Part shown: positions 8,287 to 10,532 of the stretch, piece by piece
Layout of the letters: each line of letters opens with the position of its first letter
How positions within the stretch are numbered: position 1 is the first letter of the stretch
Assembly: GCA_944391085.1 (NCBI GenBank)
Contig: CALXSE010000011.1
Span: forward strand, 4,012-68,011
DNA: 64,000 bases
From: an uncultured Kiritimatiellota bacterium
GTDB taxonomy: Bacteria; Verrucomicrobiota; Kiritimatiellia; RFP12; DVOR01
Direction: 5' to 3'
Program-made: the position numbers and the translations under genes
The notes under the pieces: generated by a model
Database searches by the model: none
Told to the model about the DNA's origin: nothing
The model's input: only the letters and a program-made list of their open reading frames with translations

Positions 8287-8831
8287 GACGCTCGGCCCTC
8301 CGCGATGCGGCGCAGGGCGGCCATCAGCGCCTCGGGCTCCGGCAGGCGCCCCGTGCCCTTGACCCCGCAGGCCAGCTCGCCGGCCTCCGGGTCCAGGAGG
8401 CGCGCGCCGCGGGCCTTGAGCGCCTCGGCGTTGGCCTGGGTGGCCGGGTTCGCCCACATGGCCGCGTTCATCGCCGGGGCCAGGATCAGCGGCCGCTCGC
8501 ACGCCAGGGCCGCCTGCGTCAGCAGGTTGTCGGCCAGGCCGTACGCCAGCTTCGACAACGTGTTGGCCGAGCACGGCGCCACGACGAACAGGTCGCACCA
8601 CCGCGCCAGCTCGATGTGCAGGGGGCGCCAATCCGCGCGCGGCGCGAAGGCGTCCGTCTCCACCGGGTGCTGCGAAAGCGTCCGCCACGTGATCTCGCCC
8701 ACGAAGTCGAGCGCACGCGGCGTCGCCGCCACGCGCACCTCCCACCCCTCGCGCACCATCAGGCGGACAAGGGAGCAGACCTTGTAGCACGCGATGGCCC
8801 CGGTCACGCCCAGAGAGACCTTCACGCTCAC
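8283..8831 (-). CDS. coaC: phosphopantothenoylcysteine decarboxylase-type flavoprotein (CoaC domain only)
   Basis: 182 aa with a GTG start that overlaps the gmk stop (GTGA). Motifs LGVTGAIACYK...VVAPCSANTLSKLAYGLADNLL...PAMNAAMW. Confidence 0.8.
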   Translation of the reverse strand: MSVKVSLGVTGAIACYKVCSLVRLMVREGWEVRVAATPRALDFVGEITWRTLSQHPVETDAFAPRADWRPLHIELARWCDLFVVAPCSANTLSKLAYGLADNLLTQAALACERPLILAPAMNAAMWANPATQANAEALKARGARLLDPEAGELACGVKGTGRLPEPEALMAALRRIAEGRAS

Positions 8832-9421
8832 AGCTCGCCCCCCTTCACCAAAAGGATGTCCCGCAGGCGGCGATAGGCCACCTGCAGATCGTCGTTCACC
8901 ACGCGGTAAGCGAACTCATGGGCGCGCGCCAGCTCGCCCTGCGCGTTGGCCAGGCGCGTCTCGATGCTCTCGGGGCTGTCCTCCCCGCGCCCCTCCAGGC
9001 GCCGGCGCAGCTCCTCCACGCTCGGCGGCTCGATGAAGACGTCCACGAACCCTTCGCGCAGCGGGTCGCCCGCCGGCAACCCCGCCACGAAGCGCCGCAC
9101 CGACGCCGCCCCCACCACGTCGATGTCCATCAGCACGCTCTGCCCCTCGGCGAAGGCCTCGCGCACCGGCCCCGCGGGCGTGCCGTAACGGTTGCCGTGG
9201 ACGGTGGCGGATTCCAGCAGCAACCCCTCGCGCTCCTGCCGCGCGAACGCCTCGGGCGTGAGGAAGAAGTAATCCACCCCGTCCTCCTCCTCCCCGCGCG
9301 GCGCGCGCGTCGTGCACGAAATCGAATAGGTGATCTCCGGGAACTCCCGCAGCAGCAGGTCGCACAACGTGCTCTTGCCCGCCCCGCTGGGCGCGCTCAT
9401 CACAATCAGCAACGGCTTCAT
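8828..9421 (-). CDS. gmk: guanylate kinase
   Basis: Internal ATG at 9421. MKPLLIVMSAPSGAGKSTLCDLLL (P-loop) is followed by SCTTRAPRGEEEDGVDYFF. Confidence 0.9.
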   Translation of the reverse strand: MKPLLIVMSAPSGAGKSTLCDLLLREFPEITYSISCTTRAPRGEEEDGVDYFFLTPEAFARQEREGLLLESATVHGNRYGTPAGPVREAFAEGQSVLMDIDVVGAASVRRFVAGLPAGDPLREGFVDVFIEPPSVEELRRRLEGRGEDSPESIETRLANAQGELARAHEFAYRVVNDDLQVAYRRLRDILLVKGGEL

Positions 9422-9457
9422 CAGACGCCTTTTCCTTTCCAACGCCATAACCCTATA

Positions 9458-9470
9458 AGCATACCAAAAA
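9458..9470 (-). promoter_or_regulatory. extended -10 promoter (TTTTTGGTATGCT) of the gmk...dxs array
   Basis: Motif match. It lies about 37 nt upstream of the gmk ATG. Confidence 0.5.
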
Positions 9471-9561
9471 CCCGCCCCGCTTGCGCGGACGGATGCCGCG
9501 CGCCGCCGGTTGGGCCCCGGCGGACGCACCGGCCGGGCAGGCATCCCATGCGGCGTGGCCC

Positions 9562-9588
9562 CAAAAAAGCCCCGGCGGCGCCGGGGCT
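9562..9588 (-). terminator. intrinsic terminator after the mini PEP-CTERM gene
   Basis: Minus strand AGCCCCGGC-gcc-GCCGGGGCT followed by TTTTTT. Confidence 0.7.
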
Positions 9589-9610
9589 CCCACAATAGTT
9601 GTTCATTCTC

Positions 9611-9724
9611 TTACACACGACGCCGCAACGCCACCCCGGCCACGCCCAGCGCAAGCAACGCCAGCGCCGTCGGCTCAGGCACAACGATGGGTTTCTCCGG
9701 GTCAGACATAAACGCACGTTTCAT
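9611..9724 (-). CDS. 37-aa peptide consisting essentially of a PEP-CTERM sorting signal
   Basis: MKRAFMSDPEKPIVVPEPTALALLALGVAGVALRRRV. An AAGGA RBS lies 5 nt before the ATG. The gene has its own promoter (9776..9804) and terminator (9562..9588). The tail is near-identical at protein level to the C-terminus of the CDS at 25976..26617. Confidence 0.6.
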   Translation of the reverse strand: MKRAFMSDPEKPIVVPEPTALALLALGVAGVALRRRV

Positions 9725-9775
9725 CTTTGTCCTTATCCGCCCCATACGGGGGCTCTCCTTTTCAGAAACGCGCTT

Positions 9776-9804
9776 ATAATACCACCCCCCCCCCATTCGG
9801 TCAA
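9776..9804 (-). promoter_or_regulatory. sigma70-type promoter TTGACC-17nt-TATTAT (TG-extended) with a G10 homopolymer inside the spacer
   Basis: The minus strand reads TTGACCGAATGGGGGGGGGGTGGTATTAT. It lies 45-50 nt upstream of the mini PEP-CTERM CDS. Confidence 0.6.
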
Positions 9805-9914
9805 GTGCTTCTTCTCGCCCTGCCCTTTTTCCTGTCTTCGCCCCGGCAAAAGGCCGACGGGAAAGCGGCGCCCGCTTCCCAGATGCGCTCCCGTGGCGGG
9901 GGCCGTGCGGGGGG

Positions 9915-10532
9915 TCAGCGGAGGGCGGCCCAGCGGTCTTGGAGGCGACGGATGGCGTCGTAGGGCGCGGGGTCGCGGCAGACGGCGCGGACGACGGCGA
10001 AGGCGGTGGCGCCGGCGGCGGCGACGGCGGGGAGGCGCGCCTCGTCGATCCCGCCGATGGCGATGGTGGGCCAGGGGGCGGCGCGGATGATGCGCCCGGC
10101 CTCGTCGGGGCCAAGGGTGGGATCCGGGATGGCTTTGGTGGGGGTGGCGTAGAGGGGGCCGACGCCGATGTAGTCGGGGGAGACGGCCCGGGCGGCCTCC
10201 ATCTGGGCATGGGAATGGGTGGACAGGCCGAAGAGGCGGAGCGCGGGGAAGGCGGCGCGGGCCTCGGGGAGCGGCATGTCGCCCTGGCCGAGGTGGACGC
10301 CGTCGGCCCCGGCCTCGGCGGCGAGCGCGGGGTCGTCGTTGACGATGAACAGGGTGCCAGTGCCGCGGGTAAGGGCGCGCAGGCGGCGGGCGGTGGCGAG
10401 GACGTCGGCGCGGGGGGCGCGCTTCATGCGCAATTGGAGGTAGCCGACGCCGGCCTTGACGGCGGCTTCGGTGACGGCCTCATAGCTGGTGACGGGGTCG
10501 GTGACGACGAGGCAGAGTCCGGAGAGTGTCAT
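9915..10532 (-). CDS. thiE: thiamine-phosphate synthase
   Basis: 205 aa. Motifs YLQLRMK...VHLGQGD...GLSTHS...DYIGVGPLYATPTK...IAIGGI. Confidence 0.9.
   Translation of the reverse strand: MTLSGLCLVVTDPVTSYEAVTEAAVKAGVGYLQLRMKRAPRADVLATARRLRALTRGTGTLFIVNDDPALAAEAGADGVHLGQGDMPLPEARAAFPALRLFGLSTHSHAQMEAARAVSPDYIGVGPLYATPTKAIPDPTLGPDEAGRIIRAAPWPTIAIGGIDEARLPAVAAAGATAFAVVRAVCRDPAPYDAIRRLQDRWAALR

Follow-up and report, generated by a model that had tools for sequence, protein, structure and literature searches.

A poly-G tract of variable length in the predicted promoter spacer of a PEP-CTERM gene remnant, and related tract promoters in an uncultured gut Kiritimatiellia genus

Organization of the thiE-gmk intergenic region

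The window analyzed here, the whole stretch of 64,000 nucleotides, belongs to a 1.73 Mb genome of 69% GC from a gut Kiritimatiellia bacterium (Candidatus Spyradenecus-like); this genome is designated G000 below and its contigs are given as C numbers. The locus under study lies entirely on the minus strand. Its upstream neighbour is thiE (9915-10532, PF02581), which encodes thiamine-phosphate synthase, and its downstream neighbour is gmk (8828-9421, PF00625), which encodes guanylate kinase. Between the two genes we located a putative promoter (9776-9804), a predicted 5' UTR (9746-9775) with the ribosome-binding site AAGGAG (9755-9760), and an open reading frame of 44 codons (9611-9745; MGRIRTKMKRAFMSDPEKPIVVPEPTALALLALGVAGVALRRRV) that ends in a PEP-CTERM C-terminus according to PF07589 and to the alignment with an intact gene of strain L073. 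An intrinsic terminator, composed of a 12-bp GC-rich hairpin and a U-run (9563-9591, -21.6 kcal/mol), parts this unit from the gmk operon. Read-through into the gmk operon was judged unlikely, owing to the strong terminator and to a promoter-like box of gmk's own (TGG-TATGCT, near 9458-9470). An Rfam search around the locus gave no match to a known RNA element that would explain the region.

The initial annotation had described the minus strand as TTGACC-GAAT-G10-TGG-TATTAT with a spacing of 17 nt, and this architecture can be read directly from 9804 to 9776. The -35 hexamer TTGACC occupies positions 9799-9804; other strains and the sister species have TTGACT at this place, so that TTGAC[CT] is present in all 12 assemblies of the locus that were compared. 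The spacer (9782-9798) consists of GAAT (9798-9795), the G10 homopolymer (9785-9794) and TGG (9784-9782), the last of which forms, together with TATTAT (9781-9776), a TG-extended -10 element (9776-9784) that is invariant across the assemblies of the locus. A consensus scan gave 10 of 12 hexamer matches with the 17-nt spacer and the TG-extended -10, and this was the only promoter-like match in the region 9300-10100, where shuffled sequences of 800 nt lead one to expect 0.1. The near-consensus hexamers, the TGn motif, a spacer within 16-18 nt, the distance to the start codon and the conservation are all those of a σ70-type extended -10 promoter; strains as distant as 96% identity still have the -35 element and the TGG TATTAT box, and so does the sister species, whose copy of the gene is intact. 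We therefore regard positions 9776-9804 as a predicted promoter and, by analogy with other σ70 promoters, would place the transcription start at about 9768-9770. An orthologous promoter upstream of gmk was found only in the sister species G005 among 46 related species, and JGI metagenome contigs, when scanned for exact occurrences of the -10/5' UTR sequence, gave no match.

The G10 tract is the only G/C run of at least 8 nt in the 64-kb window, as had been claimed for runs of its length. Overlapping G8 matches number 3, versus 13.7 expected from dinucleotide shuffles, which indicates that runs of 8 nt or more are otherwise avoided in the window.

The downstream gene is a deletion remnant

In the initial annotation the promoter was assigned to a mini PEP-CTERM gene. 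The PEP-CTERM tail is genuine: the 44-aa product matches PF07589 with 32.6 bits (cut-off 20.7), and the PEP motif, the hydrophobic helix and the basic cluster are all present at its C-terminus (VPEPTALALLALGVAGVALRRRV), in agreement with PF07589 and TIGR02595. As a surface gene, however, it is probably no longer functional. Strain L073 (98.9% identity, same thiE synteny) carries an intact gene of 221 aa, in which a domain of about 170 aa lies between the signal peptide and the PEP-CTERM tail, and alignment with it revealed an in-frame deletion of 552 bp in the window copy, with the junction between 9711 and 9710. The deletion leaves MKRA, from the signal peptide, fused to the 33 C-terminal residues and removes the signal-peptide core and the entire mature domain. 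Intact orthologues were also found in L076 and in the sister species G005, and the stump persists in strains of 96% to 100% identity.

The ancestral start codon of the stump is the ATG at 9724-9722. In intact orthologues it is preceded by an upstream ORF of 7 codons (MGRKGQR*), whose TGA stop overlaps the main start as ATGA (L073:1626-1650). In the window (9722-9745) an insertion of 1 nt (GGAAAG to GGATAAG) brings the upstream ATG into frame, which is why 44 codons are called instead of 37.

Intact relatives begin with the signal peptide MKRALLLCVSLCAAFAARA, which the stump lacks; it can therefore hardly be a substrate of the single exosortase of the genome, an EpsH/Xrt-type protein (PF09721, 134.8 bits, G000 C1:47678-48451). 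With the signal-peptide core and the mature domain deleted, a switch at this locus is probably vestigial. As judged from the sequence, switching here would probably have no surface phenotype, and no selective benefit of it is evident. The main use of the locus is that of a natural neutral control in measurements of the slippage rate.

A further paralog, at G000 C7:76958-77740, has the promoter TTGACT-GAAT-G9-TATTAT, which lacks the TGG and so has a spacer of 13 nt. Its PEP-CTERM gene is broken into two frames (150 aa and 177 aa); if the frameshift is not an artefact of assembly, this would be a second family member in decay.

Tract length among independent assemblies

Twelve independent copies of the locus were fetched from public assemblies via the neighbouring ThiE and Gmk proteins. 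Only two tract lengths, G9 and G10, were found among them, with G9 in seven assemblies whose samples span at least four accession series. Both lengths occur on the background TTGACC-GAAT (G10 in two copies, G9 in five), on TTGACT-GGAT (G10 in two, G9 in one) and on TTGACT-CAAT (one of each), and the presence of both on three backgrounds implies at least three independent changes. G10 is retained in the sister species. Between near-identical strains the tract is the sole indel and its flanks are unchanged; the copy in L005 and that in the window are one G apart and otherwise identical over 1,594 bp. Length heterogeneity at 9785-9794, which the initial annotation had proposed to look for, is thus seen among assemblies on three haplotypes. 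The shift in spacing that slippage was expected to cause was encountered in one direction: spacers of 16 nt (G9) and 17 nt (G10) both exist, and the anticipated 18 nt was never seen. We conclude that the tract is a real variable site, probably hypermutable, in front of a gene stump.

Alignments of near-identical independent assemblies, about 104 kb in total over this locus and four others, placed this variation in context. All five indels in the ~104 kb lay within promoter poly-G tracts, namely the present one and G12/G13 at G000 C3:32828, and 63 other homopolymers of 6-8 nt showed no change of length in 96 observations. By our own arithmetic this amounts to ~0.4 changes per tract observation, versus ~4e-4 substitutions per base. 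A coding C9 (G000 C4:11907) had the same length in 8 of 8 assemblies, which makes assembly error unlikely as the cause of the differences. For each of two G8 runs, 4 of 4 assemblies agreed, and a non-promoter G10 (C12:57689) was unchanged in ON61, a sample that differs at two promoter tracts; this last control comes from ON61 only, since most other contigs end before the tract. The contigs found near C6:107588/111478 also end before the tracts.

It is important to mention the limits within which these lengths should be read. The promoter tract at C5:56859 (G10), a member of the family described below, did not differ among the four assemblies compared. The C10 at C14:21215, a neutral intergenic run, varies in length between strains of 98-99% identity, so that instability by itself is no proof of function. 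Some contigs have only 3-4x coverage. In the near-identical strains of samples ON61 and KG the length differences at two loci co-segregate, and these could represent as few as two old events in two lineages instead of rapid switching.

Immediately 3' of a G12 promoter tract, two assemblies (L031:6990-7082 and L032:1610-1703) read aaaggGgataccGtaatg where the MAG reads aaaggTgataccTtaatg. The T-to-G miscalls look like Illumina G-overcalls after poly-G; such artefacts make the lengths of long tracts unreliable, and caution is due with every tract length called from data of this kind.

A family of tract-containing promoters in the genome

With each additional base, the number of G/C runs in the genome drops by a factor of about 5 as far as length 8 (5032, 904, 190, 29), and it then flattens (20 runs of length 9, 11 of length 10 and 9 of length 12 or more). 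The 40 runs of at least 9 nt compare with about 6 expected by our own extrapolation from the shorter runs, so that long G/C runs, the G10 of the window among them, are in excess.

The suggestion to look for further G/C tracts of at least 9 nt relative to promoters proved fruitful. Twelve of the 29 PEP-CTERM ORFs have a G/C run of this length in the spacer position, ending 53-67 nt upstream of the start codon; among the other genes, some 1,450 in number, about 4 have one there (Fisher p ~4e-19). The tracts of these 12 promoters are from 9 to more than 30 nt long and sit between a TTGAC-type -35 and a TGn-TAnnnT -10, with implied spacers of 13, 14, 16 (four promoters), 17 (two), 18 (two) and 19 nt, and of more than 25 nt for two long tracts. 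An AT-rich box, AAATAAGTCTTTATAC, precedes TTGAC in six members. Genome-wide, 34 TTGAC/TGn-TAnnnT sites were found, and the G-runs in their spacers are either 9-11 nt or at most 5 nt long.

The products of ten paralogs have both a signal peptide and a PEP-CTERM tail. The paralogs share merely 24-32% protein identity, and their tracts are still uninterrupted. For the protein of the paralog on C25, a look-up gave no entry. A Pfam search of the N-terminal domains of the paralogs gave no match, and the full-length AlphaFold2 model of a paralog, built with 19 paralogs, is mostly β-strand with a mean pLDDT of 54, too poor for a fold search.

In addition to the G12/G13 difference at C3:32828, members of the family vary between assemblies from G13 to G34 at C15/C20 and from G18 to G39 at C20/C3. 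Contigs of the MAG end in poly-G/C runs of 16-39 nt (C15:49914-49995, C20:1-89, C20:21953-22064 and C3:1-61), and Scaffold_430 of the source metagenome, together with other assemblies, bridges C15-C20 (G13, G15, G31 and G34) and C20-C3 (G18 and G26) through single promoter tracts. The four contig ends in poly-G are thus due to two long promoter tracts. Missing mismatch repair was considered as a cause of tract instability and rejected, because both MutS and MutL are encoded in the genome.

The genes other than PEP-CTERM genes that have such a promoter include those for a secreted LamG-domain protein of 771 aa and for a HerA/FtsK-like ATPase. The former (G000 C6:107579-110003) is preceded by TTGACA-CTA-G10-CATGA-TACACT, with a spacer of 18 nt, and sits between kdsB and plsY. 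In L069, a more distant strain, plsY, gpsA and kdsB are adjacent and the LamG-domain gene is absent, and contigs of the same strain break at the site; the gene may be a strain-variable insertion. The promoter of the ATPase gene (L084:3916-3924, G000 C4:42315-42323) reads TTGCGC-AAAT-G9-TGG-TATAAT, with a spacer of 16 nt, and the encoded protein has 1,250 aa (PF01935, PF01580). This non-surface protein may also be under tract control and is possibly part of a defence system. At G000 C1:78480-78950 (L083), some 200 nt rich in GC and prone to form hairpins lie downstream of a promoter with a G9 spacer (TTGATG-16-TATCGT, with TGT), and we saw no convincing ORF in them; Rfam gave no match downstream of the tract promoter at C1:78901. 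From its sequence, this region may be an unannotated RNA or a long leader.

Distribution in the genus and the class

The pattern TTGAC-N0-5-G9+-N0-12-TAnnnT was searched for in the genomes of the genus, with the reversed pattern as a control. It was found in 21 of 28 genomes, with up to 18 matches per genome, and the reversed pattern in none of the 28. The spacers peak at 16-17 nt genus-wide. The architecture identical to that of the window locus, TTGACN-NNNN-Gn-TGG-TAnnnT, occurs at 44 sites in the genus, and the tract lengths at these sites are G7 (4 sites), G8 (5), G9 (19), G10 (15) and G13 (1), with no G11 or G12. Of 17 such promoters in a second species, 11 belong to genes whose products combine a signal peptide with a PEP-CTERM tail. 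Class-wide, genomes with many matches are restricted to the order to which the window belongs.

Long G/C tracts inside coding sequences

Long runs were also observed within genes. A C9/G9 run (L085:4402-4410, G000 C4:16701-16709) encodes GGG right after the signal-peptide cleavage site (..AFAQGSTGGGKPS..) of a secreted protein of 1,477 aa, for which Pfam gave no match. Assembly L041 has one more base in this run, and gene calling there yields a stub of 29 aa and a remainder of 1,392 aa, which makes the run a candidate frameshift-type switch. Likewise just behind the signal peptide, a C10 run (L086:216-225, G000 C2:66615-66624) encodes PPP (..THTPTPPPRV..) about 40 codons into a secreted protein of 2,189 aa, again with no Pfam match. 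A third run, G9/C9 at G000 C14:12062-12070, directly follows the ATG of a 195-codon ORF (ATG CCC CCC CCC, MPPPAPH..), so that a change of one base would shift the frame from the second codon onward; its length was the same in the single other assembly seen.

Proposed function of the tract

Taken together, we favour, with a probability of roughly 0.65, the interpretation that the G10 tract is a slipped-strand expression switch or rheostat. The tract would be a slippage-prone homopolymer that sets the distance from the -35 to the -10 element of a σ70-type, TG-extended promoter. Replication slippage would add or remove one G at a presumably high rate, and the spacer would change from 17 nt (the optimum, with G10) to 16 nt (G9, for which weaker activity is expected) and back, altering the amount of transcript. 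The promoter would represent one copy of a promoter-plus-tract module that, in this genome and its genus, is placed before roughly 40% of the small PEP-CTERM (exosortase-sorted) genes and before a few other secreted-protein genes, the likely purpose being that individual cells display different subsets of these proteins. In the window, where promoter and tract are intact and the length is still changing but the gene has lost 552 bp, this would most likely be a relic switch without a surface phenotype.

Spacers of 16 nt and 17 nt are probably both active, especially with a TG-extended -10, and as only these two were seen at the locus, a volume control fits better than an on/off switch. The candidate phase-variation switch of the initial annotation is thereby supported in part. 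A TG-extended -10 moreover lowers the dependence on the -35 element, so that the difference between 16 and 17 nt may have a small effect. Phase variation is defined by length heterogeneity within one population.

The main rival explanation, which we consider unlikely, sees in the G-run a constant structural element of a promoter class peculiar to this lineage, such as a G-rich spacer to which a factor binds or which adjusts promoter strength, and takes the G9/G10 differences for neutral by-products of unstable homopolymers that have no regulatory role. It reasons that spacers of 16 and 17 nt both work, especially with a TG-extended -10, and it can draw on the restriction to G9 and G10 in the 12 assemblies of the locus, on the G10 kept in the sister species, on the tight clustering of the genus spacers at 16-17 nt and on the constancy of the C5 member in four assemblies. 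However, members of the family in the same genome have spacers of 13, 14, 18, 19 and more than 25 nt, which cannot all be optimal. An interrupted G-rich spacer would do equally well structurally, whereas the tracts are uninterrupted across species and across paralogs of 24-32% identity, as selection for mutability would give. The tie to a multi-copy surface-protein family, as in classical contingency loci, also argues against a fixed feature.

The other two alternatives are minor. It is improbable that the tract is truly invariant and that the length differences are sequencing or assembly errors. The coverage of 3-4x in several contigs, the T-to-G miscalls just 3' of the G12 tract in two assemblies, and the breaking of contigs at long tracts whose assembled lengths scatter from 13 to 39 would be compatible with such errors, but they are difficult to reconcile with the coding C9 that is identical in 8 of 8 assemblies, the two G8 runs identical in 4 of 4 each, the non-promoter G10 constant in ON61 and the 63 shorter homopolymers constant in 96 observations, nor would they readily place G9 in seven assemblies from at least four accession series or make ON61 and KG differ at two promoter tracts and at nothing else nearby. 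Least probable of all is that the hexamers are a chance match from which no transcription starts and the G-run an unrelated mutational relic, as the remnant state of the downstream ORF might suggest, given the 0.1 promoter-like sites expected per 800-nt region in shuffles, the retention of TTGAC[CT] and TGG TATTAT down to 96% identity and in the sister species with its intact gene, and the same module 53-67 nt upstream of the start codons of a dozen paralogs.

Beyond the single locus, we see about even odds that a true phasome exists in this genus of uncultured gut Kiritimatiellia (Candidatus Spyradenecus-like): the portable poly-G/C spacer module would independently dim or silence about 40% of the PEP-CTERM/exosortase-sorted proteins, coding-tract switches would lie behind the signal peptides of giant secreted proteins, and each cell would wear a different surface coat. 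If true, the system would be, among promoter-spacer phase-variation systems, the first on record for exosortase cargo and for the phylum, and relic switches such as that of the window would record the turnover of the repertoire. For a handful of pathogens slipped-strand switches are textbook knowledge; in the abundant, uncultured commensals of the gut they have hardly been explored. If the family switches, PEP-CTERM/exosortase proteins would be under fluctuating selection by phage, host antibody or neighbours, which drives contingency loci elsewhere; metagenome assemblies would systematically break or be mis-sized at the tracts, where several contigs of the MAG end; and the expression of tract-controlled genes would not be predictable from a consensus genome.

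Comparison with known phase-variable systems

The proposed mechanism is of the type known from porA and tpr, and we found no report of it for this lineage and cargo class. A search of a literature library returned no paper joining Kiritimatiell* with phase variation, and the combination of PEP-CTERM, phase variation and homopolymers returned only the genome paper of Akkermansia muciniphila, a PVC relative with PEP-CTERM proteins, in which mononucleotide repeats in coding regions only are noted (PMC3048395) and no tract is tied to a PEP-CTERM gene or to a promoter spacer. The phasomes of Campylobacter jejuni and Helicobacter pylori, like the present genome, show a genome-wide excess of long G/C runs at surface or secreted functions. 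Unlike the promoter tract described here, the tracts of Campylobacter, Helicobacter and Akkermansia lie mostly inside coding regions and act by frameshift; the two giant secreted proteins with C9 or C10 just after the signal peptide resemble these coding phasomes. Campylobacter and Helicobacter are not known to have mismatch repair of the MutS/MutL type, whereas the present genome encodes both proteins.

The initial annotation had referred to poly-G/C tracts in promoter spacers as an established mechanism, and porA of Neisseria meningitidis and tprL of Treponema pallidum bear this out. Relative to 11G, 10G lowers the surface expression of PorA 2-fold and 9G 13-fold (PMC3639595). As at the present locus, a G tract of 9-11 nt lies in the spacer of a σ70-type promoter, in porA that of a surface protein, and slippage by one base there changes the spacing and grades the expression; opc and fetA of N. 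meningitidis are the poly-C counterparts. Neisseria has mismatch repair, as does the genome studied here with MutS and MutL. The two systems differ in their hosts, a pathogen in one case and an uncultured PVC gut commensal of 69% GC in the other, and in their cargo, which here is a family of PEP-CTERM/exosortase substrates of about 220 aa instead of porins. Also unlike porA, the module is shared by a dozen paralog promoters, and the gene at this locus is a deletion remnant.

In T. pallidum, tract length alters reporter activity of the tprL promoter (8G versus 10G; PMC7864442). Several members of the tpr group, namely tprE, tprF, tprI, tprJ and tprL, and also tp0126, have a variable poly-G in or next to the promoter, and the length of the tpr tracts differs between and within T. 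pallidum strains. The tpr tracts lie around the -35 region or upstream of it and are not known to fill a 17-nt spacer strictly. The protein family and the phylum are unrelated to those studied here; in both cases, a paralogous family of putative outer-surface proteins is concerned. A parallel to the window locus is found in T. pallidum subsp. pertenue, where a deletion took the tprL promoter and part of the ORF, whereas here the deletion spared promoter and tract and took the middle of the coding sequence; in both, a switch-controlled gene is decaying in a sub-lineage.
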